A DNA stretch of 54,525 bases from Deltaproteobacteria bacterium (GTDB lineage: Bacteria; Desulfobacterota; GWC2-55-46). Each line of letters starts with the position of its first letter. Within the stretch, counting starts at the first letter, position 1. The position numbers and the translations under genes were made by a program. The stretch spans positions 1-54,525 of the forward strand of contig JBBTGV010000033.1 of NCBI GenBank assembly GCA_038041305.1, read 5' to 3'. The notes under the pieces are model-generated. The model saw only the letters and a list, made by a program, of their open reading frames with translations. It was not told the origin of the DNA and searched no databases. Below are positions 3,767 through 50,060 of this stretch, one piece after another.

Positions 3767-3825
3767 GTCTTGCTAAACTATAAACTGCGGCAACTCATTT
3801 AAAAATTACTATAAGAGGACGGCAT

Positions 3826-5343: not shown

Positions 5344-5407
5344 GCGTTTAAGACGCCGGCGCTTGTTGCTTTACAACGGAAAAGAAATGGTATAGTATGA
5401 TTTACAA

Positions 5408-5441
5408 GAATCCGTAATGCGTTATTACGGATTCTTTTTTT
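5408..5441 (+). terminator. rho-independent terminator of rpoD
   Basis: Perfect 11-bp stem GAATCCGTAAT (5408-5418) / ATTACGGATTC (5424-5434), 5-nt loop, then a run of 7 T (5435-5441). Confidence 0.8.
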
Positions 5442-5452
5442 ATTTTACATCC

Positions 5453-7273: not shown

Positions 7274-7280
7274 CAGCCTG

Positions 7281-7604: not shown

Positions 7605-7645
7605 GGGTTTGTTGGCCGGGCGCCCGGCCGTTTACGGCAAGGCGG

Positions 7646-7951
7646 TTAATTCCCAGCCTTCATCCTTACTGCTAAATCAAAAAGAGTGGTTATGACAAAG
7701 CTTCTTAGGAAGTGTATGCCCACAAGCACGATAAACGGGGAGAGGTCTAGGCCCCCGAGGTCCGGCAGTATCTTCCTGATTCTTCCAAGCACCGGCTCGG
7801 TGATCTGATACAAAAACCTTACAATGGGGTTGTACGGGTCCGGGTTAACCCATGAAAGCAATGCCCTGATTATTATGATCCAGAAATAAATCGTAAGCCC
7901 GCTGCTTAAGATAAGCGCTATGGTTTCTATAAGGTTTGACAGGACAAACAT
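7646..7951 (-). CDS. YggT family membrane protein
   Basis: 101 aa, two TM pairs, with IIIRALLSWVNPDPYNPI...ITEPVLGRIRKILPDLGGLDLSPFIV typical of YggT. Confidence 0.8.
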   Translation of the reverse strand: MFVLSNLIETIALILSSGLTIYFWIIIIRALLSWVNPDPYNPIVRFLYQITEPVLGRIRKILPDLGGLDLSPFIVLVGIHFLRSFVITTLFDLAVRMKAGN

Positions 7952-7954
7952 TGA

Positions 7955-8791
7955 TTAATCGTCTCCTTTTATTGAAAGTTCCCTTGCCCTTTTTGTGGCT
8001 GAGGCCACGGCCGTTGCCACCGCCTCTGAAAACCCGCCAAGTTTAAGCCCCTTAAGCCCTTCTATGGTAGTCCCGCCCGGCGAGCTCACCATGCGTATAA
8101 GCTCGCTTAGGTCCCTGTCCGATTCCTTGGCGAGCCTTGCCGCGCCGAGGACGGTCTGGACTGAAAGCGCCTTCGCAAGGTCATACGGCAGCCCCTGGCT
8201 TACGCCCGCCTCAGAGAGCGCCTCAATAAACGTAAACACATAGGCAGGCCCGCTCCCTGACAGCCCGGTTATCGCGTCCATGAGGGATTCGTCCTGAACC
8301 AATACGACCTTCCCGACAGCGCCGAACAAATAATGAGCCGCCTTGATATGCCCTTTTGTGGCGCCTGCGGCCGCGTAAAGCGCTGTTACGGCCTCTCTTA
8401 CCATCGCAGGCGTGTTCGGCATCGCCCTTATGACAGGCGAGGCCTTGGCACCGCCGCCGACAATGCCCGTTATCGCCTCAGTGCAAAGCCCGGCAACCGC
8501 TGATATGAGGAGCTTTGCGCTTGTTAACTCGGAACGGATCTCAATAAGCGCGGCAATGGAGTCCTTGGGCTTGACCGCGAGGATTATTATATCAGAGTTC
8601 CCGACAAGTTCGTAGTTTTTGCTTAAAACCTTTATCTCGTAGCGCTCCGCGAGAAAGGCAAGCCTCTTGCTGTCGCAGTCGCTCGCAAGGAGCAGGCCTT
8701 TTGCGGCTTTTCTTGACGAAAGAAGGCCTTTGATAATGGCCTCTGTCAGATTGCCGCCGCCGAGAAAGCCGATTGTTTTTTTTGTGGGCAT
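7955..8791 (-). CDS. proC: pyrroline-5-carboxylate reductase
   Basis: IGFLGGGNLTEAIIKGL Rossmann motif, RAMPNTPAMV, and the SPGGTTIEGL signature. Confidence 0.9.
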   Translation of the reverse strand: MPTKKTIGFLGGGNLTEAIIKGLLSSRKAAKGLLLASDCDSKRLAFLAERYEIKVLSKNYELVGNSDIIILAVKPKDSIAALIEIRSELTSAKLLISAVAGLCTEAITGIVGGGAKASPVIRAMPNTPAMVREAVTALYAAAGATKGHIKAAHYLFGAVGKVVLVQDESLMDAITGLSGSGPAYVFTFIEALSEAGVSQGLPYDLAKALSVQTVLGAARLAKESDRDLSELIRMVSSPGGTTIEGLKGLKLGGFSEAVATAVASATKRARELSIKGDD

Positions 8792-8826
8792 CTTAAAGAC
8801 AGGCGGTCCCGCCGGATTTTTGCGCG

Positions 8827-9516
8827 CTACGGCCTTGGGCCGAATATGGCGGTGCCGATTCTAACCATTGTTGCGCCTTCTTCTATGGCTACCTCGAAGT
8901 CAGAGGACATGCCCATTGAAAGGTGTCTAAGGAACACGCCGGGTATTTTTTCCTTGTTAATCCTTTCGGCAAGCCTTCTTAATGTCACGAAATACGGCCT
9001 TGCGCCCTCGGGGCCGTTGACCTGAGGCGGCGGTATTGTCATAAGTCCGACGAGTCTTATGTTTTTAAGCCCTGAAATGCCGCGCGCAAGCTTTACGGCG
9101 CCCTCCATGTCAACCCCGTTTTTTGTCTTCTCCCTTGCGATATTCACCTCAATCAGGGCTGTTACCGGGGTCTCCGCCCTTTTGTTTAATTCAACGGCGA
9201 GTTCAAGACTGTCAAGCGTGTGTATCGTTGAAAAGAGTTTTATCGCAAGCCTTGCCTTGTTTTTCTGAAGGTGTCCGATAAAGTGCCACTCAATGCCCTT
9301 TGCCTTTATCTTTTCTTTCTTTTGCTCCGCTTCCTGCACATAGTTCTCACCGAACGCAAAAACGCCGGCGCCTAAGGCCTCTTTTATCTTTTTCGGCTCA
9401 ACGCCCTTTGTCGCGGCAATAAGCCTTACCTCGCCGGGTTCGCGCCCTGCCTTGCGCGCCGCCCTGCTTATACGGTCAAATACGCTTGACAGGTTCTCGG
9501 ATACTGTTGCAGGCAT
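8827..9516 (-). CDS. yggS: YggS family pyridoxal-5-phosphate homeostasis protein
   Basis: LIAATKGV (PLP lysine), WHFIGHLQKNK, LSMGMSSDFEVAIEEGATMVRIGTAIFG. Confidence 0.9.
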   Translation of the reverse strand: MPATVSENLSSVFDRISRAARKAGREPGEVRLIAATKGVEPKKIKEALGAGVFAFGENYVQEAEQKKEKIKAKGIEWHFIGHLQKNKARLAIKLFSTIHTLDSLELAVELNKRAETPVTALIEVNIAREKTKNGVDMEGAVKLARGISGLKNIRLVGLMTIPPPQVNGPEGARPYFVTLRRLAERINKEKIPGVFLRHLSMGMSSDFEVAIEEGATMVRIGTAIFGPRP

Positions 9517-9606
9517 TTTTAGCCAAACACCTTTTTATGTATTTAAAAAGCAGATAAAACCGTTAAGGCAAGTCCGTCTTGTTAAGCAAGATGGCCTTTC
9601 CGGAAA

Positions 9607-9957
9607 TCAGAATACCATGACCTGTCCGCCCTCGCTTATCCATCTTGCAAGGTCAATGGTCTTGCCGATTACGGCGCCTTCAATGAGGTCTTGAGGCTCA
9701 AGCCCCCTCGCATTGGTGCATGTAAGGCAGGACCGCACCTCAACGCCTTTTTCAATAAGCCCTTTCAGCATCTCCCCGATATTGTAATATCCCTTTGGCG
9801 GGGACTGGCCTTTTTTAGCGGAGACGACGCTGTCGCCGTACAGGAATATCCTTACTTTCGTCCCGGTTGTAAGAAGCGCCTGAGAAAGCCTTAACGCGTT
9901 CCACACCTTTTCATTGCCGTAAGGCGCATCCTGAAGCACAATTGTAACCGTGTTCAT
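9607..9957 (-). CDS. DsrE/DsrF-like (YchN-type) family protein
   Basis: 116 aa. The pattern PYGNEKVWNALRLSQAL...VRIFLYGDSV...CLTCTNARGL...DKV-like C-terminus matches DsrE-family small proteins. Confidence 0.65.
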   Translation of the reverse strand: MNTVTIVLQDAPYGNEKVWNALRLSQALLTTGTKVRIFLYGDSVVSAKKGQSPPKGYYNIGEMLKGLIEKGVEVRSCLTCTNARGLEPQDLIEGAVIGKTIDLARWISEGGQVMVF

Positions 9958-10008
9958 TGCAAAAAATCCCTTTTGCGGTCTTTTTATTATGCATATAATT
10001 GCGAAATC

Positions 10009-10030
10009 TCAAGGGTTTGTCAAGGGTTTG
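10009..10030. repeat. perfect tandem duplication of the 11-nt unit TCAAGGGTTTG
   Basis: 10009-10019 and 10020-10030 are identical. Located in the divergent intergenic region between the dsrE-like gene and queF. Confidence 0.9.
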
Positions 10031-10117
10031 ATGAAAGACGCAAAACCGTGATTGCCTCTCTTGGCAAAACTTGCTAATATATATAAGGAAATTATAAAAT
10101 AAACGCGGAGTTTAAAA

Positions 10118-10489
10118 ATGAAAAAAAGTCTTAAGTATGGTGAAGAGGCTGTTTTGAAGGCTAAATTAGAGGCATGGGCGAATCCAAACCAGGAGAGGGA
10201 TTATGAAATAGAGATAATGTGTCCTGAGTTTACATGTTTGTGTCCGCGTTCAGGTTATCCTGATTTTGCGATGATAAGGGTACTGTATGTGCCGGACAAG
10301 AAGGTGGTTGAGCTTAAATCATTAAAGCTTTACTTAAATTCCTTTCGCTCAAAATCAATATCGCACGAGGCCGCGGTGAATCTGATATTCAACGATATTA
10401 AAAAAATTTTAAGCCCGCGTAGCCTTGAGGTTGTCGGTGATTTTAACGCGAGGGGCAATGTTAAGACAATCATAAGGGTAAGGCTTTAG
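10118..10489 (+). CDS. queF: NADPH-dependent 7-cyano-7-deazaguanine (preQ0) reductase, type I
   Basis: [48 protein letters not shown] is the QueF motif with the catalytic Cys. Length is 123 aa. Confidence 0.9.
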
Positions 10490-11559
10490 CCCAATATCTC
10501 CTTCAGCGCCTTTATTAGCAGGGCGTTCTCCCCTCTTTTCCTGACGGCAATCCTGAAAAATTTTTTCCCCAGGCCCGGCCAGGCGCTTAATTCCCGGATT
10601 AGTATGCCCCTTTTTAAAAGCATTGCCTTTAGTTCAGGCGCATCCGGTCTTTTTGACGAGACCCTTACCATCAGGAAGTTTGCGGCGGACGCGTATGGCT
10701 TAAGGCCTTTGACAGATGAGAGGGCGTCATACAAAAATCGTCTTTCGCTTTGAATGAGCCTTAGGGTGTTTTTATGGAAAACCCTGTCGTTTAAAGACGC
10801 GACGGCGGCCTTTGACGCAACCGTGTTTACGGTCCACGGAGGCAGTTTTTCCTTAATTTCCCTTGCCGTGGAGGGATGCGAAATTGAAAAACCGAGCCTT
10901 AGGCCCGCAATGCCGAAGAATTTCGTCAAAGACCTTAATACAATGATGTGCCTTTTGAAAACAGCCTCTTGCCTGATTGAAATGCCTTCATTAAAGTCAA
11001 CAAACGCCTCGTCAACCAAAAGGCGCGTGTTGTGTTTCTTGCAGAGAGAGGAGATCTCCATCATGGATTCTTTTTCTATGGCCGCGCCTGTGGGGTTCGC
11101 CGGGTTTGCGATGCAGACAATCCCGTAGTTTTTTTTTAGCGCCCTTGAGAGCTCGCTTAAGTTTATTGAGAAACCACGGGCCTCCCTCAGCATGAACGAG
11201 TCTGGTTTCAAGCCGTTTAATTCAAGCGCCCTCCTGTATTCGCTGAAGGCGGGCTCAATTATAAGGGCGGTCTTCGGCCTTAAGACCGAGGGTATGAGAT
11301 ATATAAGCTCGGTTGAGCCGTTTGCGGGTATTATGTGTTCCGGGTCCACGCCGTAGAAAGAGGCGATTGCCTGTTTAAGCCCCCTTGAGTCCGGGTCTGG
11401 ATAATGGGGCAGGAGTTTTATTGAGGACTTTATTTCCCTGACTGCGCGGGGCGAAATCCCGAGCGGGTTTATGCTTGCGCTGAAGTCAATTATGCCTGAA
11501 ATGCCCCTCTTGGTCGTCTCCGCCGCATCCCAGACATTGCCTCCGTGGGTGTCTTTCAT
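10486..11559 (-). CDS. cobD: threonine-phosphate decarboxylase CobD (class I/II aminotransferase fold)
   Basis: N-terminal HGGNVW and [10 protein letters not shown] are typical of CobD. PLP lysine region [16 protein letters not shown]. Sits in a cobalamin gene context. A HisC-like aminotransferase cannot be excluded without a search. Confidence 0.7.
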
Positions 11560-20528: not shown

Positions 20529-20601
20529 GCGCCTGTAGCTCAGCGGACAGAGCATCGGCCTCCGAAGCCGAGGGTCAGGAGTTCAAATCTCCTCAGGCGC
20601 G
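20529..20601 (+). tRNA. tRNA-Arg (anticodon CCG)
   Basis: Folded by hand. Acceptor GCGCCTG/CAGGCGC, D arm GCTC..GAGC, anticodon stem TCGGC/GCCGA with loop CTCCGAA, T arm AGGAG-TTCAAAT-CTCCT, discriminator G. No encoded CCA. Confidence 0.9.
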
Positions 20602-20713: not shown

Positions 20714-20790
<77 letters not shown>

Positions 20791-21282: not shown

Positions 21283-21345
21283 CGCCTTTGTGTTCATTCA
21301 TGCCTTGACTTGTCCGGGATATTCGTTTAAATTACGGAAATAGAT

Positions 21346-21521
21346 GTCAGGTATCCCCATCCGGGGATTTTTAAAAGGGAATCCCGTGATCTGCGCTGAG
21401 CAGAGATTCGGGAGCGGTCCCGCCGCTGTAACCGGGTACGAAGGCCGACAATGCCACTGGGGATTAAACCCCGGGAAGGCTGAGCCGTAGGATTATCCGG
21501 GAGCCAGAAGACCTGCCTGAC
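21346..21521 (+). promoter_or_regulatory. cobalamin (B12) riboswitch 1
   Basis: AAAAGGGAATCCCGTGA..., CCCGCCGCTGTAA, GCCACTGG...CCCGGGAAGGC, and the B12 box GAGCCAGAAGACCTGCC. P1 pairs GTCAGGT (21346-21352) with GCCTGAC (21515-21521). The first 24 nt of the core are identical to riboswitch 2. Confidence 0.8.
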
Positions 21522-21616
21522 GCATAGCGTAGCATTAAAGCCTTCTCGCGGACAGGAAGGCCCCTTAAGGACTTTAGTCTTTGGGGTAGGAAACTGAGGG
21601 TCAAGAAACAGGGTGC

Positions 21617-21649
21617 AATCCTCGGAGTTAAGGCTCCGGGGATTTTTTT
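21617..21649 (+). terminator. riboswitch expression-platform terminator (attenuator)
   Basis: AATCCTCGGAG (21617-21627) / CTCCGGGGATT (21634-21644) stem with one mismatch, merging into a T-run to 21649. Confidence 0.55.
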
Positions 21650-21786
21650 ATTTCAATCGGATGCCCGGCTTGACCCGCCCCTTCAGGGCGTGGGTCGGCC
21701 GGGCCACAGAAAAGAAAAATGCCTTGCCGACAATCCCGGCCATTTTTGGCAGGCGATTGAAAATTATTTCAACAAGGAGACAAGAC

Positions 21787-23088
21787 ATGACGCAGATAGA
21801 GGCCGCAAGAAAGGGCGTTATAACCAATGAGATGAGGGAGGTCTCCGCAAGAGAGGGGCATACTCCGGAATACATAATGGAGATGATAGCCCTCGGCAGG
21901 GTCGTGATTCCAAACAACAAAAACAGGAAGGCAAGGCTCGTCGGCATAGGCGCAGGGCTAAGGACAAAGGTCAATGCGAGCATCGGCACCTCGTCCGACA
22001 TAGTTGACGCAAAGGCAGAGGTGGAAAAGGCGGTTGCCGCCGAAGAGGCGGGGGCGGACACATTAATGGAGCTCTCGGTCGGAGGCGACTTGGACAGCAT
22101 AAGAAAGCAGGTGCTTGGGGCAACGAACCTCTCGGTGGGCAGCGTCCCGCTTTATCAGGCGTTTAAGGAGGCGATAGAAAAGTATCACGACCCGAATAAA
22201 CTGACAGAGGGGCTTTTGTTTGATGTGATTGAGAGGCAGTGCGAAGACGGCATATCCTTCATGGCCGTGCACTGCGGCATAACGAGGCTTACGATAGAGA
22301 GGCTAAACAGGCAGGGTTACCGCTACGGGGGGCTTGTCTCAAGGGGGGGATCCTACATGGTGGGCTGGATGCTTAAGAACAACAGGGAAAATCCCCTTTA
22401 CGAGAGGTTTGACCGCGTTGCCGGGATACTTAAGAAATACGACTGCGTCCTAAGCCTCGGCAATGGCCTGAGGGCCGGCGCCGTGCACGACAGCCTTGAC
22501 AGGGCGCAGGTGCAGGAGCTTTTGATAAACTGCGAGCTTGCCGAGACGGGCCAGGACATGGGATGCCAGATGATGTGCGAGGGCCCCGGGCACCTGCCGT
22601 TGGACGACATAGAGGCCAATGTAAGGCTTCAGAAAAGGATGAGCGCGGATGCGCCTTTTTACGTGTTGGGCCCTCTTACAACCGACATTGCCGCGGGCTA
22701 TGACCACATATCCGCCGCAATCGGGGCCGCCGAGGCCGCAAGATACGGGGCGGACCTCATATGCTATGTCACCCCGGCGGAGCATCTGGCCCTGCCGAAC
22801 AAGGAAGATGTCGTTGAAGGGGTGAGGGCGGCTCGTATCGCGGCCCATGTCGGCGACATGGTAAAGCTCAAAGGCAGGGACAGGGACATGCGCATGGCAA
22901 AGGCAAGAAGGGATTTGAAATGGGATGAGCAGCAAAGGCTCGGTCTTTTCGGGGAAAGGGCCGCACAAATAAGGGCGAGCCGCGCGCCGGACAATTCCGA
23001 CACATGCACCATGTGCGGGAGCTTCTGCGCCCTTGACAATGTCAATGCCTTTTTCAGGGAATGCCTTGAAAAAGGCCCGAAACGCTGA
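21787..23088 (+). CDS. bzaF: ThiC-family radical-SAM enzyme; given the B12 riboswitch, probably 5-hydroxybenzimidazole synthase (BzaF-type) rather than HMP-P synthase ThiC
   Basis: Start at ATG 21787 (MTQIEAARKGVITNEM, SD AAGGAGA 7 nt upstream). ThiC hallmarks are present throughout (NASIGTS, LMELSVGG, VPLYQA, MCEGPGH, VTPAEHL) with the C-terminal CTMCGSFCAL cluster motif. The ORF-track start 21613 lies inside the attenuator. Confidence 0.8.
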   Translation: MTQIEAARKGVITNEMREVSAREGHTPEYIMEMIALGRVVIPNNKNRKARLVGIGAGLRTKVNASIGTSSDIVDAKAEVEKAVAAEEAGADTLMELSVGGDLDSIRKQVLGATNLSVGSVPLYQAFKEAIEKYHDPNKLTEGLLFDVIERQCEDGISFMAVHCGITRLTIERLNRQGYRYGGLVSRGGSYMVGWMLKNNRENPLYERFDRVAGILKKYDCVLSLGNGLRAGAVHDSLDRAQVQELLINCELAETGQDMGCQMMCEGPGHLPLDDIEANVRLQKRMSADAPFYVLGPLTTDIAAGYDHISAAIGAAEAARYGADLICYVTPAEHLALPNKEDVVEGVRAARIAAHVGDMVKLKGRDRDMRMAKARRDLKWDEQQRLGLFGERAAQIRASRAPDNSDTCTMCGSFCALDNVNAFFRECLEKGPKR

Positions 23089-23345: not shown

Positions 23346-24806
23346 ATGCAACGCGCACTGGACGCACTGGAAAACCTAATAGATGAAACATTAAGCCCGC
23401 GCTACAACCCGCTTTATTGCCTCGGCGCCATCTGCGTATTCTTCCTATGGGTGCTTTTAGTAAGCGGCGTATACCTCTTTGTATTCTATAAGATAGGCAG
23501 CCCCTATGAATCCGTTAAGACAATAACCGAGAATCAGTGGATGATCGGCGCGTTTTTCCGGGGCATGCATCGTTATTCAGCGGACGGCCTTGTGTTTTTC
23601 GCGCTTTTACACCTAAGCCGCGAGTTCATAAGGGGAAGGTTTCGCCACGGGAGGTGGACGCAGTGGGTTACCGGCGTACTGACGCTCGGCGTCATATGGA
23701 CAACAGGGGTCATCGGGTACTGGATGGTATGGGACCAGAGGAGCCAGCTCGTAGCCGAACTCTCCTCAAAACTCCTTGATTACCTGCCCATATTCGGCGA
23801 ATCCCTGTCAATCGCCTTTACAACGCCGGAGCTTGTCACGAACCTTTTCTTTCTCATAGCTTTATTCCTGCACCTTACGCTTCCGGTGCTTCTTTTCATA
23901 TTCATATGGCTTCATGTCATGAGGGTGACAAAGCCCCGCATACACCCGCCGAGGCCCGTCTATGCAGGGGTCGCCGTCTCCCTTGCCTTTATGGCCGTAT
24001 TCGCGCCGGTTAAAAGCCTTTTGCCCGCGAATACGGATAAGATTATTTCAGTTATCGGCATTGATTGGTTCTACCTCTTTATATATCCGATGCTAAACAG
24101 CGCTCCTGCCTGGCTTTCGTGGCTTACCATCTCCGCGTCTACGGCTGTTCTCATTGCCGTGCCGTGGATATTCCCAAAAAAAAGGCCGGCCCCGGCAGCG
24201 ATAAAAACAGAGAACTGTTCGGGATGCGCCGTATGCCGCGAGGAATGCCCGTATTCCGCCATATTCATAAGGCCCTCAGGGCCCGATGCAGGCACCGCCG
24301 AGGTGATACCCTCAAGGTGCGCCAGCTGCGGCATATGCGTCGGGTCATGCGCGTTCAACGCAGTGGACTTTCCCATTAAGAGGCACGAGGACATAATGGC
24401 GGAGATTTCCGCAAAGGTCCTCGGCGCGGGCAATAAAGGCCCTTTTAAGCTCTTTTTCGCCTGCTCGCACATAAGCGGCCTTGACCATGCCTTTGCAGGG
24501 CATGCCGGGCCGGATATGCGCCAAGCGGGTCTTATAAAACTCCCGTGCGCCGGCATGGTGAATGCCGGCTGGATTGAATACGCCCTCAAGCTCGGGGCGG
24601 GCAATGTGGTCATCTTAGGGTGCAAAGAGGGCGCCGGGTGGTACCGCACAGGAAATACGCTTTTGTCAGAGAGGGTCGCGATGCTTTCTGATAAGGACAA
24701 TGCCTCAAGGGTCAGCGTTCACCTCACGTCAAGGCTGACTGAAAAGACGCTCCATGAGCGCATAAGCGCGGTAAATGAGGGGGTTCGCCTAACCGGAGAT
24801 GTTTAA
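23346..24806 (+). CDS. fusion protein: bc-type cytochrome b (helices A-F) + 2x[4Fe-4S] ferredoxin + MvhD/FlpD-like domain
   Basis: Two H-x13-H haem-ligand pairs (MHRYSADGLVFFALLH; LHLTLPVLLFIFIWLH), GYWMVWDQ, and an ef-loop IDWFYLFIYPML in place of PEWY. After TM6 come CSGCAVCREECP and CASCGICVGSCA, then LIKLPCAGMVNAGWIEYALKLGAGNVVILGCKEGAGWYRTGN (MvhD-like). Confidence 0.75.
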   Translation: MQRALDALENLIDETLSPRYNPLYCLGAICVFFLWVLLVSGVYLFVFYKIGSPYESVKTITENQWMIGAFFRGMHRYSADGLVFFALLHLSREFIRGRFRHGRWTQWVTGVLTLGVIWTTGVIGYWMVWDQRSQLVAELSSKLLDYLPIFGESLSIAFTTPELVTNLFFLIALFLHLTLPVLLFIFIWLHVMRVTKPRIHPPRPVYAGVAVSLAFMAVFAPVKSLLPANTDKIISVIGIDWFYLFIYPMLNSAPAWLSWLTISASTAVLIAVPWIFPKKRPAPAAIKTENCSGCAVCREECPYSAIFIRPSGPDAGTAEVIPSRCASCGICVGSCAFNAVDFPIKRHEDIMAEISAKVLGAGNKGPFKLFFACSHISGLDHAFAGHAGPDMRQAGLIKLPCAGMVNAGWIEYALKLGAGNVVILGCKEGAGWYRTGNTLLSERVAMLSDKDNASRVSVHLTSRLTEKTLHERISAVNEGVRLTGDV

Positions 24807-25347
24807 AAAAGCCCTGAAATGTTTAGCCGCAGTAATCGCGCTGGCCGCGCCTCTGGCCGTGGTGCTCTTTTTTTCAGAGTCGGATTACGGATTTTACGAC
24901 CCGCAAAGCGCGGTCTTGAAGTTGAGCATAAAGCACGCCGGGCACAGGACGGTTGAGTGCGACGACATGCAGATCCTTAAAGAGGAGGCCGAACGATACA
25001 GGGCCATGATCAAGGATACCAAGAGCGCGAAGATGAAGCTTAAAAAGCTCGGCTCGTGCAGCAGGGGCAGAAACCCGGTGTATGTTGAGCTGTATGCCGA
25101 TGAAAGGCTTCTGGTCTCAGGGTCGTTTGAGGCTGGCGGATGGACAAAGGACGGTGCGTCCTTCATATACGGCAAATATCCGATAGCGCCGGGAAAGAGG
25201 CGCGTTGTCGTAAAGATGCGCGATTCAGGGCAGTCGGATGCCTTTGATTATTCGTTCAGCAAGGAAGTGGAGTTTGAGGCAGGACGCTTAAGGGTCGTTA
25301 AATTTGACGAGACAGGCAAGAAAATCTTTGTGCAGCAGGCTCCATGA
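24799..25347 (+). CDS. hypothetical membrane-anchored protein
   Basis: 182 aa with an N-terminal TM/signal anchor (LKCLAAVIALAAPLAVVLFF), then a beta-rich soluble domain. No recognisable motif. Its start overlaps the upstream gene by 8 nt. Confidence 0.55.
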   Translation: MFKKALKCLAAVIALAAPLAVVLFFSESDYGFYDPQSAVLKLSIKHAGHRTVECDDMQILKEEAERYRAMIKDTKSAKMKLKKLGSCSRGRNPVYVELYADERLLVSGSFEAGGWTKDGASFIYGKYPIAPGKRRVVVKMRDSGQSDAFDYSFSKEVEFEAGRLRVVKFDETGKKIFVQQAP

Positions 25348-25396: not shown

Positions 25397-26233
25397 TCAA
25401 TCCAGGAGCTTTGGACTGCCCCTTCTAAAAAGTTTATATACTATCCAGACAAGGGTCGCCCCCTGAAGGGCCGAGCCTAACGCGAGCGCCGCTATCGCGC
25501 CGAAGTTAAGCCTGTAAATGCCCGAGACCTCGTCATAGCGGTAGCAGAAAAGTATCACCTTGTCTATTATGCCCGAGGGGTTTAAGAAGGCCGAGGCAAC
25601 CCCTGAGCCGGAGGCAAGAACCACGGCGTTGACAAGCTCCTCCTGATTGAAGTTCATGCCGTAGACCTGCTTTAGTATCGTCCCGTCCCTGCCAACTACG
25701 GTTGTGAGGTTCATGTGGTCAAAACCCCCGTCCGGGAGCCTCTCATAATAAAAACCGAGTTCCTTTGTGAGGGCCTGTATTGTCTTTGCGCCGGCGGTTG
25801 CAAACCTCCATTTGGTGAAGTCGTCCGTAAAGCGCGCGCCAAAAGACTTAAGCACGGACGGGGTGTCATGATCGGGGTCAAAGCCGATTGAGAGGGCCGT
25901 AAAATCCCCGCCTGATTTCATCTTTGCGATGGCGAAGGCCTGCTTGAGCCTGCCCGTTATGTTGGAGCAGACATGCGGACAACTCGTGTATATGTAGCTT
26001 ATGACGAGCGGCCTGCCCATAAGCCCTTTGAGGGGAAGGGCATTGTTGTCCTGATCAATAAGCGTGTAGCCGGGTATTTTTTTGCCTATCGCCGCGTTTG
26101 CCGTTGCAACTGGGTCCGAGGCCCATAGGGGCGTTGCAGGGCCTGAGATTAAGGCAACGAGGGACACGACAAAGGCAATAAGCGTATTTTTGGAATAAAG
26201 GCGGCTCATTCCGCTAACGTAGAGAGATGTCAA
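25397..26233 (-). CDS. SCO1/SenC family copper chaperone with extra C-terminal TM segment
   Basis: Thioredoxin-like fold with the CPHVC motif (YIYTSCPHVCSNI). N-terminal anchor and a C-terminal hydrophobic tail. An alternative start at ATG 26209 is possible. Confidence 0.85.
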   Translation of the reverse strand: MTSLYVSGMSRLYSKNTLIAFVVSLVALISGPATPLWASDPVATANAAIGKKIPGYTLIDQDNNALPLKGLMGRPLVISYIYTSCPHVCSNITGRLKQAFAIAKMKSGGDFTALSIGFDPDHDTPSVLKSFGARFTDDFTKWRFATAGAKTIQALTKELGFYYERLPDGGFDHMNLTTVVGRDGTILKQVYGMNFNQEELVNAVVLASGSGVASAFLNPSGIIDKVILFCYRYDEVSGIYRLNFGAIAALALGSALQGATLVWIVYKLFRRGSPKLLD

Positions 26234-27089
26234 GTATCACGGACAGGAAAAGTCCGCTTAGATATATCATGGAGGCCCTGAAATTCCTCCGCGCGATCTC
26301 CTTTGACTGGTCGCGGATGAACTCAATGTTCCTGTAAATGAAAAAAGCGCCGAATATAACGGCAGAGGCCGTGTATACGCTGCCGAGGAACCCGAACCAC
26401 ACCGGCAGCAGGGACGAGAGCACGAGAAGCAGGGTGTTCAGGAGCACGTACCGGGCGGTCTTGAAATCCCCTATGATGTTAGGCAGCATGGGGATGCCGG
26501 CCCTGCCGTATTCCTCTCTGTGGAGGACCGCGAAGCTCCAGAAGTGCGACGGGGTCCAGAAAAACATCACAACGGCAAGGAATACCGGCAGCAGGCAGAA
26601 CTCAGGAGAGGCCGAGGCCCCGCCCGCAAGCACGGCAAAGCTGCCCGCCAGCCCGCCGATGACTATGTTAATCCAGCTCCGCCTCTTCAGCCACACGGTG
26701 TATACGATTGCGTAGACAAAGCCGCCGAGGAAGAGGTGCAGGGCGACCATGGGGTTAAGCACCTTAAGGGAAAGCAGTATTGACGCGATGAACAGCCCCG
26801 TTGCCGCGATAAGAATCCTGCCTGAGCCCGCCACATGGCCGGCGGGCAGGGGTCTCTTTTCCGTCCTCTTCATTATGAGGTCTATGTCCCTGTCAAAATA
26901 ATGGTTGAACGCGCTTGCGCCCGCGGAGGCCATCATGGTAACGAGCGCGAGATACAACAGGGTTGATGCGGATACTGATACGCCAGCGTTTGACGAGGAT
27001 ATAAGGCCCACGATCGCGGTGAATGTTATAAGGGAGCAGATCCGGAATTTAAAAAGCGGCAAATAGTTTTTAAGCGAGGCCGAGGTCAT
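26214..27089 (-). CDS. ctaB: protohaem IX farnesyltransferase (haem O synthase)
   Basis: UbiA-family polytopic protein with NHYFDRDIDLIMKRTEKRPLPAG and FWTPSHFW motifs. 4-nt overlap with the upstream gene. Confidence 0.9.
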   Translation of the reverse strand: MTSASLKNYLPLFKFRICSLITFTAIVGLISSSNAGVSVSASTLLYLALVTMMASAGASAFNHYFDRDIDLIMKRTEKRPLPAGHVAGSGRILIAATGLFIASILLSLKVLNPMVALHLFLGGFVYAIVYTVWLKRRSWINIVIGGLAGSFAVLAGGASASPEFCLLPVFLAVVMFFWTPSHFWSFAVLHREEYGRAGIPMLPNIIGDFKTARYVLLNTLLLVLSSLLPVWFGFLGSVYTASAVIFGAFFIYRNIEFIRDQSKEIARRNFRASMIYLSGLFLSVILDISLR

Positions 27090-28522
27090 GCCGCCTCCCC
27101 CGGGGGTTCTGCCAAGGCCTTGCGCCTTAACAGCGAGAGCCCGGCATTGGCGACGAACATCGCCCCGCCTATTATGGCCACGAGGCCGCCGAGCCCGAAA
27201 ACGGCCATGCTCAGGAGCTTGATCGGGTCGTCAAGGTTCTGCGCCGCCCCGAAGGTCTTTCTCGCCACCCCGTGCGAGCCCGCCCAGAACATCCCGAGCA
27301 CGAAAAGCGTTTGCCCTATGCCGAACACGTACGGCTGAATGGAGGCCGCCTTCTCGGAGTAAAGGGTTCCCTTTAGGTTCCGGATTAGATGATACGCCAT
27401 GCCCATGAACGCCGCCGTCACGCCGCCGATTGCGCCGTGGTAATGCGAAGGTATCTTGGTGTTGTATCCGTGTATGAACATTGACATGAGGCCCCCGAGC
27501 GCAAAAAGGACAATAGACATCGCAAGGGATGCAAACTCCGGGCTTCGCCACGGGAGTTTTTTAATCCCTTCATAAAGGCCGCTTGTCCTGCCCGGCGAGG
27601 CGGACGCTACGACAACGGCCGCGAATATCACCGTGGAAGGCCCAAGGCCGAACTGCATGAGCCTTGTGAAGACCGTCCTGTAGCCCATGGTGTCCACGTC
27701 GTAGAACAGGTATGCAAACGGCGCAAAGGCTACGCTTGCCAGATACAGGCCGAAGACGGGTCTGCCAAGGGCCGCCTGTATGGAGATCTTCTTAAACAGG
27801 ACATCCGCGAGATAAAGCCATACAGAGGCCATTGCCATTGTGTTCGCGAACTGGAGCATGTGCCCGCCGCCCCAGAAAAGCGTCTCAAGGTCCGCTGTCC
27901 CTATCCCCGCGCCTGAGGAGGTCTTAAAATAGAAAGACAGCGCAAAACACATAAAGGCCACGAAGACCGCAATACTTGACGCAATCATACCGAACCTCAC
28001 AAGGGCCGTTGAACCGCGGTATCCGTTCCCTTTGATCCCGTAAAAAACCGTTAAAAAGACATTTGCGAGCAGTATAAGCATTCCCGCGGCAAGCAGCAGG
28101 AGCCCCGCGTAAAAGGCCGGATGGTTCAGCACCGGCACATAATTGATGAAAAGCGGAGTTCCGAGCCCCAAGAGGGATGCGGCTATTATGACGGCCGTGC
28201 CGCAGACCGACGCGGCGAGGCCCGCCCATCCGAGGATTGGGCTAAAGACCCCTGTTGAGAGGAAGTCCGTGCTCCCCAACAGCCACAGCGCGCCCTCAAA
28301 GGCAAGAAACCATATCACAAAGGCGAGATTGACGTGCGCAACGAGCGCAACGCGCACATAATCGGTTGAAGGGAATATGGACTGGATGAAAGGGGTGCGC
28401 GCCATTGCCACGAGGAATGCGAATACGCCCGCAAATATGAGAGAAACGACCGCGAAAAGCACAAGGCCGTAGAAAAGTCTTTTGCTGTGTTTGTTTTCGG
28501 ACAGACCTTTTATGTTATTCAT
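27086..28522 (-). CDS. haem-copper oxidase subunit-I-like paralogue lacking the helix-VII CuB histidine pair
   Basis: About 12 TM. Helix II His (VALVAHVNL), helix VI LFWGGGHMLQF (compare FWFFGHPEVY), and helix X HGYNTKIPSHYHGAIGG (compare HNT...GHFH). Where the neighbouring paralogue has SEHHLLVDP, this protein has TRLMQFGLGP. Confidence 0.7.
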   Translation of the reverse strand: MNNIKGLSENKHSKRLFYGLVLFAVVSLIFAGVFAFLVAMARTPFIQSIFPSTDYVRVALVAHVNLAFVIWFLAFEGALWLLGSTDFLSTGVFSPILGWAGLAASVCGTAVIIAASLLGLGTPLFINYVPVLNHPAFYAGLLLLAAGMLILLANVFLTVFYGIKGNGYRGSTALVRFGMIASSIAVFVAFMCFALSFYFKTSSGAGIGTADLETLFWGGGHMLQFANTMAMASVWLYLADVLFKKISIQAALGRPVFGLYLASVAFAPFAYLFYDVDTMGYRTVFTRLMQFGLGPSTVIFAAVVVASASPGRTSGLYEGIKKLPWRSPEFASLAMSIVLFALGGLMSMFIHGYNTKIPSHYHGAIGGVTAAFMGMAYHLIRNLKGTLYSEKAASIQPYVFGIGQTLFVLGMFWAGSHGVARKTFGAAQNLDDPIKLLSMAVFGLGGLVAIIGGAMFVANAGLSLLRRKALAEPPGEAA

Positions 28523-28584: not shown

Positions 28585-28719
28585 TTAATGGAGCTCCCAG
28601 ATTGTTGAGAGGTACTTAAAGTTCAGAAAATAAACCGCTATGAAGGTGATTAGGAATATGAGCGCAAGCACGAATGTGCCGGGCGCTACGAACCTTCCGT
28701 TGCCGTGTTCGTCTGACAT
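28585..28719 (-). CDS. small single-TM protein (44 aa), possible oxidase subunit IIa-like peptide
   Basis: Below the ORF-track size cutoff. ATG at 28719 is preceded by GGGAGG 9 nt upstream. Translation MSDEHGNGRFVAPGTFVLALIFLITFIAVYFLNFKYLSTIWELH. Fills the gap between the two subunit-I-like genes. Confidence 0.55.
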   Translation of the reverse strand: MSDEHGNGRFVAPGTFVLALIFLITFIAVYFLNFKYLSTIWELH

Positions 28720-28753: not shown

Positions 28754-30268
28754 CTATGCGAGTTTTTTGCCGTACATTACGGTTCCAAGCGTTACGACCA
28801 CGTACGCGATGCCGCCGAGCGCCGCGAGTATCGCCCCTATGCCGAACACCCCTATCCACATGTAGACGGTCGGGTCCCACGAGAAGGCGAACGGAGAGCC
28901 GCCGAAGTTGACGATGTCCCAGTGCCTCCTCGGGACGCCGTATGCGCCGGCAAGCATCATGCCTCCGCTTACAAGCGTAATGCCGACGCCGAAGAGCCAC
29001 GGCTGTATCTTGGCGAGCTTCATTGCCCAGACCTCCCTCCTGAATATCAAGGGGAGTATGTAGTAGGTGACGGCCATGAAGGCCATGGTGGTGCCTCCCA
29101 CGACCGTTCCGTGGAAGTGCCCCGTGATCCTCCATGTGTTGTGGGCGGTGATGTTGATCTGCTCTGTGCCGAATGTCACGCCCGTGATGCCGCCCAGGAA
29201 CCCGAACATGAATATGGAGAGTATCGCCCCTGAAAAGGCGGGGTTGCCCCACGGCGCCATCTTGAACCACTCAAACAGGCCCTTTGTGTAGCCCTGCTTC
29301 CTGAGCGCCACCTCCATGCCCGCGGGCACCGCGAGGGCGTGTATCATGCTGGCAAGCACCGCCAGATGCATGATGTAGCCCGTGTTCCATATCTTGTGCG
29401 CGTTGGAGAATACCGGGTCAACGAGCAAGTGGTGCTCGGAGGCGACGTTTATAAAGAGTATGTAGAGCACGAAGGCCGTCCTGCAGAGCTTCTCGTTTAT
29501 GGGCTTCATGCCGACCGAGAGCGCCCCGATGAGGTACCATATTGAGATCATGGCGCAGACGTTAATCTGCTGGGATGCATGTCCGAGCGCCCACCATACG
29601 AGCCTGTAAGCCGAGGGGTCCATGCCCGTAAGCCCGAGCGACCAAAGGAGCGTCGGGATATAGATGCCGGCCCCGTGCAGGAGCGTCGTCGTTGCGATAG
29701 CGGCCGCCGCGAAAAGCCCGAATGTCACGAGCGGGAAGCTCTGGGCCGTATAGGTCTTTTCCTTTCTTGCCTTGTAGAGCGTGGCGAAGAAGAGAAAAAC
29801 GCCGATAAGCGCGCCCACGGCGAAAAGTATTATGCCGGTGTAATAGAACGGGTGGGCCATCAGCGGCGGATACGACGTAAAGAGCACGTCCGCCTTGCCC
29901 GAAAGCACCATTATGTTCGTAAGCACGGCCCCGCCGAGCATGAGGAAGTAAGATATCCACCCGACGGTAGGCGCCGCGAGCCTTGAGTTCAGGAGCACCG
30001 CGCTTCCTATGTAGAGGGCGGCCACCTCAAAGAATATTACCCATACGATAAGCATGTCAAGGCCGTGAGCCGTCAGGACCCTGTAGAACCACTCGGCCGG
30101 CAGTATGTGGAACGCGGGCCAGCGTGTGAACGCGGCGCCGAGGGCGGCAAGCCCGCCTATTGCTATGAATATGACCGCCGTGATAGTATTTGCCTTTATG
30201 AGCTTTTCCGCCGGCAGATGCACCTTAAGGCCGGTAACGGAACAAGTCCTGAATTCCTGCTCGTTCAT
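28754..30268 (-). CDS. haem-copper oxidoreductase subunit I, B-family-like, without the cross-linked tyrosine (NOR-like active site)
   Basis: Helix II YRVLTAHGLDML. Helix VI WWALGHASQQINV (Gln where A/B-family oxidases have Tyr). Helix VII SEHHLLVDP. Helix X AHNTWRITGHFHGTVVGG. Confidence 0.85.
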   Translation of the reverse strand: MNEQEFRTCSVTGLKVHLPAEKLIKANTITAVIFIAIGGLAALGAAFTRWPAFHILPAEWFYRVLTAHGLDMLIVWVIFFEVAALYIGSAVLLNSRLAAPTVGWISYFLMLGGAVLTNIMVLSGKADVLFTSYPPLMAHPFYYTGIILFAVGALIGVFLFFATLYKARKEKTYTAQSFPLVTFGLFAAAAIATTTLLHGAGIYIPTLLWSLGLTGMDPSAYRLVWWALGHASQQINVCAMISIWYLIGALSVGMKPINEKLCRTAFVLYILFINVASEHHLLVDPVFSNAHKIWNTGYIMHLAVLASMIHALAVPAGMEVALRKQGYTKGLFEWFKMAPWGNPAFSGAILSIFMFGFLGGITGVTFGTEQINITAHNTWRITGHFHGTVVGGTTMAFMAVTYYILPLIFRREVWAMKLAKIQPWLFGVGITLVSGGMMLAGAYGVPRRHWDIVNFGGSPFAFSWDPTVYMWIGVFGIGAILAALGGIAYVVVTLGTVMYGKKLA

Positions 30269-30277
30269 TGTTGCCTC

Positions 30278-30823
30278 CTATTTGACTATCAATTTCCCGA
30301 CCATGGTGTGGTGCCCAAGGCCGCAGTATTCGTTGCAGAGTATTGAAAACTCCCCGCTTGTGGTCGGCTTTATGGTCAGCACGTAGTCCTGTCCGGGTAT
30401 TGCCATAAAGTTGATGTTCATCGGATATATTGAAAACCCGTGCTGAAAATCCAGGGATGAAAGATGCAGCCTGTAAGTCTTGTTCTTTTCAAGCTCAAGT
30501 ATTGGGTCAAAGTTCCACGCCTTCGCGACAAGGAAGATGTCGGAGCCCGCCGGCGGATGCACGACCGCGAACCCGTTTATGGAGACCGGGGCGTTGTTTT
30601 CGTCCCGGACCTGATATTTGCTTATGAACTCATCGGCCAGCGCGCTGAAGCGTTCAGGCGTCACCTTGTAGGATTCCGAGGAAGGGTTCTGCTTTCCCAT
30701 CACATGCCATAAGGGCATCATGGAGAAGGTGAAGATCATCCATACGAGCGCAAGGATGAGCCAGATCTTTTCCTCCCTGTCTATCGGTTTCCACCAGACC
30801 CTTTCCGGTGCGGTTAAACTCAT
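30278..30823 (-). CDS. haem-copper oxidase subunit II, single-TM cupredoxin with complete CuA site
   Basis: DFQHGFSI ... FSILCNEYCGLGHHTMVGKLIV provides all CuA ligands (H, C, C, H, M). The size and single TM resemble ba3-type subunit II. Confidence 0.85.
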   Translation of the reverse strand: MSLTAPERVWWKPIDREEKIWLILALVWMIFTFSMMPLWHVMGKQNPSSESYKVTPERFSALADEFISKYQVRDENNAPVSINGFAVVHPPAGSDIFLVAKAWNFDPILELEKNKTYRLHLSSLDFQHGFSIYPMNINFMAIPGQDYVLTIKPTTSGEFSILCNEYCGLGHHTMVGKLIVK

Positions 30824-30850: not shown

Positions 30851-30997
30851 TTAAGGTAATGTAGGCTGAGACCAGACTTCCCAGAGCCCCCAGAGCGTAT
30901 AGGAAACAACGGTAATCGCAAGCCCGAGGATAAAAAGGAGCGGAAGATTATCGTAAAATCTCTGCCCCGAAGGCACCTTCCCGCTGCTGTCTTCCAT
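30851..30997 (-). CDS. small single-TM protein (48 aa) at the head of the oxidase operon
   Basis: Below the ORF-track cutoff. ATG 30997 with a GGGGGA SD-like element upstream. Translation MEDSSGKVPSGQRFYDNLPLLFILGLAITVVSYTLWGLWEVWSQPTLP. Its stop lies 27 nt before the subunit II start. Confidence 0.5.
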   Translation of the reverse strand: MEDSSGKVPSGQRFYDNLPLLFILGLAITVVSYTLWGLWEVWSQPTLP

Positions 30998-31137: not shown

Positions 31138-31200
31138 TCTTTTTATTGTCTTATTCGTGCAGAATGTTTATATTGAAAAACATTGGAGGAAAAATCACAC

Positions 31201-31896
31201 ATGGAGAATGTTATGTTTATGGAAAAAACGCTGGACGTAAGGGGAATGGAGCCGAGGCTCAGGCACCCGAAGATATTTGAGACCTTCAGGGCATTGGCGC
31301 CCGGGGAATCCTTTGTGCTCATAAACGACCATGAGCCGAGGCCGCTTCTTTACCAGTTCCAGGCTGAGCACGACGGCGAGTTTGAGTGGTGGCCCCTTGA
31401 GCAGGGTCCTGTTGACTGGAGGGTTTCAATAGGAAAAAGAAAGGTTAGGGATTTGGACAGGACCATCACCGACTACATGCAGACGGACCACAGGCGGCTG
31501 GATGCCCTATACGGCGCATTTCAGGAGAAATACAAACAGGGCGACTGGGCCGGCGCGGACGCGCTCTTCAGGGAATTCAGCCTCGGCTTAAGAAGGCACA
31601 TAAAGGTTGAGGAGGAGATACTTTTTCCCGTGTTTGAGGAAAAAACAGGCATGAAGGACGCGGGCCCGACCTTCGTGATGCGCATGGAGCACGGCGAGAT
31701 AAAGGAGCTTCTTGACGGCATCCTTGCGGGCATCGGCAGGAAGGACGAGGCGGGCGTAAAGAACTCGGAATACAACCTCGCGAACATACTCGCTGACCAC
31801 AACATGAAGGAAGAGCACATACTCTATCCCGAATCCGACGCGTTTATAGCCGGCAGGGAGCGCGCGGACGTCATAAAAAAATCTCAGGCCGCTTAA
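31201..31896 (+). CDS. DUF2249 + hemerythrin-like (HHE cation-binding) domain protein
   Basis: N-terminal LDVRGMEPRLRHPKIFETF...FVLINDHEPRPL (DUF2249-like). C-terminal DHRRLD..., HIKVEEEILFPVFEE, MEHGEIKELL and DHNMKEEHILYP (di-iron hemerythrin ligand pattern). SD GGAGGA lies 10 nt before ATG 31201. Confidence 0.8.
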   Translation: MENVMFMEKTLDVRGMEPRLRHPKIFETFRALAPGESFVLINDHEPRPLLYQFQAEHDGEFEWWPLEQGPVDWRVSIGKRKVRDLDRTITDYMQTDHRRLDALYGAFQEKYKQGDWAGADALFREFSLGLRRHIKVEEEILFPVFEEKTGMKDAGPTFVMRMEHGEIKELLDGILAGIGRKDEAGVKNSEYNLANILADHNMKEEHILYPESDAFIAGRERADVIKKSQAA

Positions 31897-49975: not shown

Positions 49976-50060
49976 TGTGAGGCGATACCGCTTGACTTAA
50001 ATGCCTTAAAATGTAAAGATGCGCTCTGGAGTTTTTTGCAGTCAAAACCGAATACTGAAG

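Follow-up and report, generated by a model that had tools for sequence, protein, structure and literature searches.

The stretch of DNA analysed here, hereafter the window, comprises 54,525 nucleotides of contig JBBTGV010000033.1 from the Deltaproteobacteria bacterium assembly GCA_038041305.1, and carries a fusion gene for which we use the working name cytbFus (Table 1). The encoded 486-residue protein joins a cytochrome b membrane domain of the bc type to a ferredoxin domain with motifs for two [4Fe-4S] clusters and to an MvhD-like domain; its gene is coupled to that of a small membrane-anchored protein, p182, and stands beside the genes of a haem-copper oxidase (HCO). The fusion is a genuine, widespread and uncharacterised membrane protein. 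Relatives were found in at least 576 species genomes when one genome per species was scanned, with hosts among the Alpha-, Beta- and Gammaproteobacteria, Thermodesulfobacteriota, Nitrospirota and Aquificota; the family spans at least five phyla. When 1.84 billion cluster representatives (50% identity clusters) were searched exhaustively with HMMER, 370 proteins were returned at E<=1e-30. The hosts include chemolithoautotrophs (Gallionella, Sulfuricaulis, Nitrospirota, Hydrogenobacter), and one copy is carried by a plasmid of Defluviimonas sp. SAOS-178_SWC (NZ_CP156080, L085). Other isolates with the cluster are Litoreibacter arenae DSM 19593 (L081) and Hydrogenobacter hydrogenophilus (L004). 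A match in a Bacillus 'plasmid' (H9) was the sole cytochrome b match of its record and fell in unannotated DNA, and its 12-kb locus contained no homologues of the HCO, SCO1 or p182.

As the window comes from a contig of a metagenome-assembled genome, an assembly chimera or a frameshift had to be considered as the source of the fusion, a caveat already entered by an earlier reading made from the sequence alone. The chance of such an artefact is negligible, because hundreds of genomes, plasmids and metagenomes, independent of one another and from different phyla, share the same continuous architecture; its recurrence in the species genomes and cluster representatives counted above effectively refutes it. 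A protein identical over all 486 residues is recorded on two contigs, and the AlphaFold model of cytbFus is confident (pLDDT 89.4, pTM 0.87), with the domains packed together.

Table 1. Features of the fusion gene and the adjoining oxidase cluster, with their positions in the window.
Feature	Position	Strand	Evidence
cytbFus, cytochrome b::2x[4Fe-4S] ferredoxin::MvhD-like fusion, 486 aa	23346..24806	+	ATG start, TAA stop; Pfam domains
Cytochrome b membrane domain, helices A-F, aa 1-275	23346..24170	+	Pfam PF00033/PF13631, invariant residues, transmembrane prediction, AlphaFold model and Foldseek
Cytoplasmic (predicted) 2x[4Fe-4S] ferredoxin domain, aa 284-343	24195..24374	+	Fer4 families, conserved Cys
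MvhD/FlpD-like domain, aa 366-486	24441..24803	+	Pfam FlpD; residue alignment to MvhD chains; family profile
p182, 182 aa, single transmembrane helix and periplasmic beta-sandwich	24799..25347	+	Overlap with cytbFus, transmembrane prediction, AlphaFold model
SCO1/SenC copper chaperone, CPHVC motif, N- and C-terminal transmembrane helices	25397..26233	-	Pfam SCO1-SenC 2.1e-16, transmembrane prediction, synteny
Haem O synthase CtaB/CyoE	26214..27089	-	TIGR01473 267 bits, above cutoff; recurrent in cluster
COX1b, divergent HCO subunit I paralogue	27086..28522	-	Pfam COX1 2.3e-17; conserved-His analysis
44-aa single-transmembrane-helix ORF between COX1b and COX1a	28585..28719	-	Homologues at same position in many loci
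COX1a, HCO subunit I, B-family-derived NO reductase type	28754..30268	-	Pfam COX1 4.5e-60; ba3 alignment; His sextet
HCO subunit II, CuA motif CNEYCGLGHHTM	30278..30823	-	Pfam COX2 and TIGR02866
DUF2249 + hemerythrin protein, divergent from HCO operon	31183..31896	+	Pfam

Domain composition of the fusion protein

The three-domain architecture proposed from the sequence alone is borne out by Pfam matches above their cutoffs and by profile matches to cytochrome b6 and MvhD. Within the membrane part, Cytochrome_B (PF00033) was matched at aa 13-194 with 68.7 bits (gathering cutoff 27.2) and Cytochrom_B_N_2 (PF13631) at aa 83-249 with 56.2 bits, while a profile of the family matched cytochrome b6 structures of the PDB with E=3e-32. 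Hydropathy and the AlphaFold model indicate six transmembrane helices, A to F, which Foldseek superposed on the cytochrome b of bc1 and bcc complexes over 285-350 aligned columns (E about 1e-6 to 3e-7), and among which helices E and F are the equivalents of those of subunit IV. Two haem-ligand pairs, H75/H89 and H176/H190 on helices B and D, correspond to the H-x13-H pairs recognised earlier, with a spacing of 13 residues, and are invariant among the 70 relatives on which conservation was scored. Two further elements resemble those of a Qo site, namely GYWMVWD at aa 124-130 and IDWF at aa 239-242. The GYxxxWxQ motif claimed for the first of these is present as GYWMVWDQ, with G124, Y125, W129 and D130 invariant, but its terminal Q131 is not conserved in the family. 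The substitution of PEWY by IDWF stands as it was read: the acidic residue and the Trp are retained, with D240 invariant and W241 and F242 kept in at least 90% of relatives, and the Pro and Tyr are gone.

The DE loop and the PKKRPAP segment that follows helix F lie on the n-side and are positively charged, so that the Fe-S half of cytbFus is predicted to be cytoplasmic; on this point hydropathy, charge and the AlphaFold model agree with the sequence-only reading, which had argued from a sixth helix and the same basic segment. The position of the n-side quinone site is taken up by the fused Fe-S domain, and the cysteine that binds haem cn in b6 (CxGG) has no conserved counterpart. Attachment of a haem cn through C25, which lies in a b6-like YCLG/YCLGA context, was considered and ruled out, since relatives vary at this position among C, H, Y and N.

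In the soluble half, Fer4 dicluster families were matched at aa 284-343, where two CxxCxxCxxxC motifs comprise C291/294/297/301 and C325/328/331/335. Seven of these cysteines are invariant and C297 is found in at least 90% of relatives; the earlier description of both motifs as ending in CP applies to the first, whereas the second ends in CA. The FlpD family (PF02662) was matched at aa 370-449 with 44 bits against a cutoff of 22.3, and the family profile aligned with MvhD chains over their full length (E about 3e-17), the structures 9sw2_D and 8rvu_F being aligned by residue and 5odc_D also matched. Residues 281-450 align in addition with the C-terminal ferredoxin and MvhD segment of HdrA2 (NCBIfam, 95.6 bits, sub-threshold). 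The MvhD-like domain retains three invariant cysteines, C373, C401 and C426. At the place of the fourth [2Fe-2S] ligand, the GDC of MvhD corresponds to GAG in the window protein, so that the string GCKEGAGW, pointed out from the sequence alone, indeed contains a Gly in place of the last cluster Cys. This loss was seen only in the window protein and in its 78%-identical relative P0002, the cysteine being kept by at least 90% of the family. All NCBIfam matches of cytbFus (ExtP, b6 and HdrA2) were sub-threshold; no named family was found for it, and the names given in the source records are automated and generic.

The 8-nt overlap of the two ORFs (open reading frames), ATGTTTAA, through which cytbFus and p182 would be translationally coupled, is confirmed. 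Transmembrane prediction and the structural model (pLDDT 89) describe p182 as one N-in transmembrane helix followed by a periplasmic helix and an eight-stranded beta-sandwich, for which Foldseek found only generic Ig- and CBM-like sandwiches. A word-indexed homologue search returned three close relatives of p182, and the family was gathered instead from fused forms and loci. Among the 150 best representatives of cytbFus, 95 have p182 joined to their C-terminus, which makes the split form of the window a minority state. Conserved residues of p182 are H46, C54, C87, R89, R91, D101, G114 and D118; at position 134 the family usually has His and the window copy Arg. A metal site or a disulfide formed by H46, C54, C87 and H134 is possible. 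The idea that p182 is a degenerate cupredoxin or subunit II was rejected, as hhalign gave a probability of 0.2% when a 66-sequence p182 profile was compared with a 100-sequence subunit II profile.

Association with an oxidase cluster of the NO reductase type

Synteny was assessed with the window proteins as queries against the ORFs of the fetched loci. The haem-copper operon, treated by the sequence-only reading as an incidental neighbour, is the defining context of cytbFus. In the canonical arrangement the genes lie on one strand in the order CuA subunit II, COX1a, sometimes CtaB, SCO1, cytbFus, p182 and sometimes COX1b. Where at least 5 kb of upstream sequence was available (51 loci), COX1a was present on the same strand within 4 kb upstream of cytbFus in 46 cases and SCO1 directly upstream in 43. 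Three of the five exceptions are second copies of cytbFus that follow COX1b in the same cluster, one consists of SCO1, cytbFus and p182 alone, and one has no HCO. The reverse test started from 61 metagenomic loci retrieved through COX1a, and cytbFus was found in 19 of the 22 that extend at least 2.5 kb beyond SCO1. Both the SCO1/cytbFus and the cytbFus/p182 junctions show overlaps of 1-4 nt in locus L001 and in the Defluviimonas plasmid. The same genes occur in convergent or divergent orientation in the window, its close relative L090, the Nitrospirota locus L008 and Hydrogenobacter (L004); SCO1 of the window faces cytbFus and p182 across a gap of 49 nt, whereas in most relatives it lies directly upstream of cytbFus on the same strand. 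From the plasmids of Thermus and Thermomicrobium that encode homologues of the HCO (47-49% identity), SCO1, cytbFus and p182 are absent together.

Subunit I, COX1a, keeps all six canonical His. When it is aligned with the ba3 oxidase of T. thermophilus, H233 and Y237 of the latter correspond to H230 and Q234, so that the cross-linked Tyr is replaced by Gln. The surrounding motif GH(S/A)SQQINV is conserved in 66 homologues, with an invariant Asn two residues downstream of the Gln. A Gln at this position is diagnostic of eNOR, while sNOR has Asn (PMC8756737, Table A4), and the eNOR of R. marinus is an experimentally verified NO (nitric oxide) reductase (PMC8756737; PMC11214002). Operons of eNOR contain a CuA-type subunit II and genes of haem A/O biosynthesis, often including CtaA, and eNOR occurs in Gallionellaceae (PMC11214002). 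Gallionella is among the cytbFus loci, and CtaA lies near cytbFus in 16 of 83 loci surveyed for neighbours, the window not being one of them. We class the cluster as putatively of eNOR type on one diagnostic residue and its context; an assignment to sNOR, which the gene order had suggested, was dropped once Gln was found opposite the Tyr of ba3. The gene logic is shared with norSY-senC-orf1 of the sNOR of ammonia oxidisers and with cbaCBA-senC-cbaD of Bacillus, both of which combine subunit II, subunit I, SenC/SCO1 and a membrane protein (PMC4940428, PMC3475470). The fourth gene is orf1 (NE0686) in the ammonia oxidisers and cbaD (BAZO_06409) in Bacillus, the latter encoding a membrane protein of 190 residues; sNOR differs from COX1a in having Asn instead of Gln at the cross-link position.

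The second subunit I paralogue, COX1b, retains both haem ligand sets and one CuB/FeB His and lacks the His-His pair of helix VII. In Nitrospirota loci NorQ and a second SCO1 come after it, and in Gallionella a copy of cytbFus stands on either side of it. COX1b may act as an unusual catalytic subunit resembling that of NOR, or as a partner without catalytic function. A second small ORF with a single transmembrane helix (48 residues, 30851-30997, minus strand) flanks the subunit I and II genes together with the 44-residue ORF of Table 1, and in L001 a 52-residue ORF sits upstream of subunit II. These small ORFs are probably small HCO subunits of the CoxIIa-like kind. The SCO1 of the window has, after its thioredoxin-like domain, an extra C-terminal transmembrane helix (aa 244-262) that places both ends in the cytoplasm, which is unusual for SCO proteins. 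With its C-terminus on this side, a fusion of SCO1 to cytochrome b is topologically natural.

Recurrent neighbours of cytbFus in the 83 loci were cd1 NirS-like proteins (28), hemerythrin (27), NirD/L/G/H-type proteins (14), Crp/Dnr regulators (13), NirJ (11) and NnrS (6); hemerythrin or DUF2249 proteins were also noted in L085, L151 and L152, and in Hydrogenobacter nirS and nosZ lie near the cluster. The DUF2249-hemerythrin protein of the window is probably an NO/O2-responsive accessory. A neighbourhood of this NO-responsive character, with Rrf2/NsrR, Crp/Dnr, NnrS and hemerythrin, would suit a sensor or regulator in which NO-labile Fe-S clusters and b haems report the status of NO or of the quinone pool to HCO assembly or activity, and SenC has been called a sensor of NO and low oxygen in the ammonia-oxidiser literature (PMC6967387). 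Such a role is nevertheless highly improbable for cytbFus, which contains no output or signalling domain and has a full chain of electron-transfer cofactors with strictly conserved ligands; its variants with flavin modules and cytochrome c, described below, look like throughput electron transfer.

Rare variants among the relatives reveal partners on both sides of the membrane. In P0390, SCO1 is joined to the N-terminus of the cytochrome b. Five representatives carry a CxxCH motif after residue 450; one of them, P0386, with a cytochrome c domain recognised by Pfam, is encoded directly after COX2-COX1 and before another cytochrome c gene (L153); a similar ORF is listed in the appendix of PMC8756737 (RME88945.1). 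The statement of the sequence-only reading that cytbFus lacks a Rieske or cytochrome c partner holds for the window, where motif checks found no Rieske motif and no credible CxxCH protein, and no Rieske-like cluster was among the recurrent neighbours of the 83 loci.

On the cytoplasmic side, three Nitrospirota loci (L010, L011, L073) have, between two cytbFus paralogues, a NuoF-like gene with Complex1_51K, SLBB and NADH_4Fe-4S domains, that is, an FMN/NADH site and an N3-type 4Fe-4S cluster. In L011 this gene (5053-6363) overlaps both paralogues, by 4 nt at each junction, and the downstream paralogue precedes COX1b, NorQ and SCO1. The NuoF-like protein is a candidate NAD(P)H-oxidising partner of the MvhD-like domain. 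In P0358 the ferredoxin and FlpD half is swapped for flavodoxin, FAD-binding and NAD-binding domains, a module of the CPR/CysJ type, and the gene follows PCuAC, Caa3_CtaG and SCO1 and precedes NnrS. Its locus (L151, JGI Ga0256829_1000073) presents CtaB, cytbFus, p167, COX1, PCuAC (PF04314), Caa3_CtaG, SCO1, P0358 and NnrS at positions 695-10798; two cytochrome b paralogues are here accompanied by a full complement of copper chaperones. Neither the window nor the recurrent neighbours of the 83 loci included Hdr, Mvh or Flx genes, and by their domain content the cytoplasmic partners in relatives are NAD(P)H-linked modules. The link to heterodisulfide reductase or hydrogenase systems that had been suggested from the sequence alone thus finds no support.

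Possible direction and role of electron transfer

We give an even chance to the reading that cytbFus, p182 and SCO1 form an accessory redox module of the eNOR-type cluster, which would bring electrons at the level of NAD(P)H or ferredoxin to the periplasmic side of SCO1 and CuA. As judged from the synteny, cytbFus probably carries electrons across the membrane for the HCO rather than acting alone. The fusions point to SCO1 and p182 as physical partners of cytbFus, and a complex of the three proteins would be consistent with them. The direction of flow is not readable from sequence, and we infer it, like the acceptor, from the partners; the balance tilts somewhat in favour of movement from the inside to the outside. 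The NAD(P)H flavoprotein modules of relatives point this way, the membrane potential favours outward movement of electrons, and reductases of the NOX/FRE/STEAP type, in which NADPH-flavin modules and a transmembrane pair of haems deliver electrons outward to metal ions, work likewise.

In the proposed sequence of events, the MvhD-like domain and the two [4Fe-4S] clusters would receive NAD(P)H- or ferredoxin-level electrons in the cytoplasm, while in some relatives a flavoprotein like NuoF, or an NADPH-diflavin reductase fused to the cytochrome b, would be the point of entry. Domains of the MvhD type serve as adaptors through which dehydrogenase modules exchange electrons with their partners. 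The electrons would then cross the membrane through haem bH on the n-side and haem bL on the p-side and exit into the periplasm, the location of the SCO1 domain, of the p182 beta-sandwich (in some relatives a cytochrome c domain) and of the CuA subunit. There they could keep SCO1 and copper reduced for the metallation or repair of copper centres in an NO-rich periplasm, or they could feed NO reduction as an input independent of the quinone pool. SCO proteins take part in CuA assembly and are both copper chaperones and thiol-disulfide oxidoreductases.

Within the in-to-out reading, the larger share falls to maturation or maintenance of copper centres through SCO1, which we propose tentatively. 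It is suggested by the SCO1 fusion of P0390, by the gene neighbourhood with PCuAC and CtaG, by the fact that the clusters of Thermus and Thermomicrobium lack SCO1 and cytbFus alike, and by the similarly built cupric reductase CcoG. Catalytic electron donation takes the other share and appears the more doubtful; the cytochrome c variants, the presence of one cytbFus copy per HCO paralogue and the COX1b cassette, which has no subunit II of its own, argue for it. Either sub-role may apply on this evidence, the cytochrome c variants favouring catalysis and the SCO1 fusion together with PCuAC-CtaG favouring maturation.

Several observations weigh against such an outward wire. The best-conserved residues other than haem ligands belong to the Qo-like pocket of the p-side (G124, Y125, W129, D130, D240, W241 and F242), and the protein has kept its helices E and F. 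Neither would be required of a simple wire, which suggests quinone chemistry. A gene for a cytoplasmic donor is absent from the window and from most loci, the NuoF-like gene being present in three loci and the CPR-like module in one representative, and the window protein is short of one of the four MvhD cluster cysteines. Furthermore, the HCO occurs without the module on the plasmids of Thermus and Thermomicrobium and in three of the 22 metagenomic loci, so that the module is not an obligatory subunit.

The conserved pocket would be accommodated by an extension of the idea put forward from the sequence alone, in which cytbFus is a bifurcating quinol oxidase without a Rieske protein. Quinol would be oxidised at the Qo-like pocket; one electron would pass along a high-potential branch to copper-loaded SCO1, to a fused cytochrome c or to the CuA of the NO-reducing HCO, and the second would travel through bL, bH, the two [4Fe-4S] clusters and the [2Fe-2S] cluster to ferredoxin or, through the NuoF-like or diflavin module, to NAD(P)+, the Fe-S chain replacing the Qi site. 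This scheme agrees with the near-invariance of the pocket residues and with the presence of helices E and F, by which the site of quinol oxidation is shaped in bc complexes (PMC5600118). The genetic position expected of a Rieske or c1 protein is filled by a membrane-anchored periplasmic partner capable of redox chemistry (SCO1, or in variants cytochrome c), the model docks the Fe-S domain with confidence on the n-side (pTM 0.87), and many of the hosts, such as those named above, are chemolithoautotrophs that need reverse electron flow. A comparable part in generating NAD(P)H has been suggested for Rieske/cytochrome b complexes of anammox bacteria (PMC12954380). We nevertheless consider quinol oxidation of this kind rather unlikely, since it is energetically demanding: the second electron would have to move against the membrane potential and then to about -320 mV or lower. 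Acceptors of the CuA type, at about +250 mV, exert little pull, and bc1 is already present in many hosts, such as Rhodobacterales and Bradyrhizobium. Diflavin modules of the CPR/CysJ type normally run from NADPH to the acceptor, and the window offers neither a catalytic cytoplasmic acceptor nor, in its own protein, the complete set of MvhD cysteines. The full version, in which reduction of NO (or O2) drives the formation of low-potential reductant as ferredoxin or NAD(P)H, is less probable still.

Redox-loop membrane anchors such as NarI/NarH, HdrE/HdrD and QmoC, and likewise DsrMK, work with a quinone site on the p-side, a stacked pair of haems and an Fe-S relay in the cytoplasm, a layout that cytbFus would share. 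The membrane folds are unrelated (NarI type versus bc type), and those systems end in a defined cytoplasmic catalytic subunit, which is absent here. By analogy, p-side quinol could send electrons inward to a soluble cytoplasmic reductase docking on the MvhD-like domain, with the HCO linked through regulatory co-expression only; MvhD domains are established docking adaptors in the Mvh-Hdr and Flx-Hdr systems. However, no candidate reductase recurs in the neighbourhoods of the 83 loci. The recurrent or fused partners are instead periplasmic or membrane proteins (SCO1, p182, cytochrome c), and each HCO paralogue has its own copy of cytbFus, which makes an anchor of this kind very unlikely.

Relation to known systems and neighbouring features

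The membrane part has close structural kin in the cytochrome b of b6f and bc1 complexes (PF00033, COG1290), with which it shares the fold of helices A to F and the two bis-His haem sites at 13-residue spacing. Its b6-like motifs comprise an N-terminal NP.Y.LG, a GY..(V/P)WD that closes helix C and an H....R behind helix D; xDWF stands at the PEWY position. Unlike b6f and bc1, cytbFus has no Rieske protein or cytochrome c1/f and only six helices, does not conserve the haem cn cysteine, carries a fused Fe-S chain on the n-side in place of the Qi site and has the HCO/SCO1 cluster as its genetic partner. The Rieske-less b6-like cytochromes of Geobacter (ExtP, NF040969; Cbc) include the best NCBIfam match of the membrane part (ExtP, 104 bits against a cutoff of 290). 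In contrast to cytbFus, ExtP has 205 residues and four helices, works with periplasmic multihaem cytochromes and contains no Fe-S fusion. The soluble half has known counterparts in the C-terminal ferredoxin domain of HdrA together with MvhD (Methanosarcina HdrA2, QmoB, FlxD), of which it aligns with the segment of HdrA2, and the four MvhD cysteines are kept by the cytbFus family; it differs from these systems in that the flavin domain of HdrA, HdrBC and nearby hydrogenase or Flx genes are missing and the module is mounted on a bc-type cytochrome b.

A further parallel, in layout, is offered by CcoG/FixG, reported to be a cupric reductase and assembly factor of the cbb3 oxidase (Marckmann et al. 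2019). Both systems bring together a membrane part of several helices, a 2x[4Fe-4S] domain in the cytoplasm, one more transmembrane helix and, in the periplasm, an Ig-like beta-sandwich, with HCO maturation genes alongside. CcoG is haem-free and is reported to reduce Cu(II) on the cytoplasmic side; homology at the sequence level was not detected, the FixG/CcoG Pfam domain matching neither cytbFus nor p182. The variant P0358 follows the logic of NOX/FRE/STEAP reductases, from NADPH through flavin and two haems to an outside acceptor, often Fe(III) or Cu(II), although the membrane and flavin-domain families are different and the window protein uses Fe-S clusters, with no flavin domain encoded together with it.

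Our search of the literature agrees with the initial impression that this architecture is not a described complex. No paper describing cytbFus or its association with eNOR or sNOR was found in the searchable literature, and a paper on the diversity of NO reductases makes no mention of a cytochrome b partner; beyond the appendix listing of RME88945.1, PMC5600118 mentions an uncharacterised clade of cytochromes b encoded in 'large conserved operons of unknown function'. While the modules are known, we found no description of their combination, of their partners (SCO1, the beta-sandwich, the HCO) or of the absence of Rieske, which appear to be new. The current labels, 'hydrogenase iron-sulfur subunit' and 'cytochrome b N-terminal domain-containing protein', are misleading, and the family deserves a name.

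According to Murali et al. (2024), much of the NO-reductase diversity in the environment, and hence of N2O production, is owed to haem-copper NO reductases of the eNOR and sNOR types. The cytbFus family is the most consistent unexplained neighbour of these enzymes. Should the outward wire be true, the bioenergetic accounting of NO reductases would change, as electrons would bypass the quinone pool and their passage would dissipate the proton motive force; SCO proteins would gain a dedicated reductase, and bacteria would possess a counterpart of NOX/FRE/STEAP built on a cytochrome b6 scaffold. If quinol oxidation were true, cytbFus would be the first bc-type cytochrome b to operate without Rieske, with an Fe-S exit replacing the Qi site, and would bear on the evolution of the Q cycle and on quinone-based electron bifurcation; the bifurcating version would in addition assign a catalytic electron-transfer role to a protein of the SCO family.

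Upstream of cytbFus, the window contains a cobalamin riboswitch (RF00174, 122.6 bits, 21332-21534, plus strand) directly preceding an ORF of the ThiC_Rad_SAM family (21613-23088, plus strand). We presume that this ThiC paralogue under B12 control is probably a 5-hydroxybenzimidazole synthase of the BzaF/BzaAB type, forming the lower ligand of B12 anaerobically, rather than the ThiC of thiamine synthesis, a reading that fits because many cobalamin genes are present in the window. A second cobalamin riboswitch (106.5 bits, 50050-50260, plus strand) lies upstream of CbiX/CbiC and CbiM genes for the chelatase and cobalt uptake. Two tRNA genes at 20529-20601 and 20715-20787 (plus strand) precede the first riboswitch and the ThiC-like gene.

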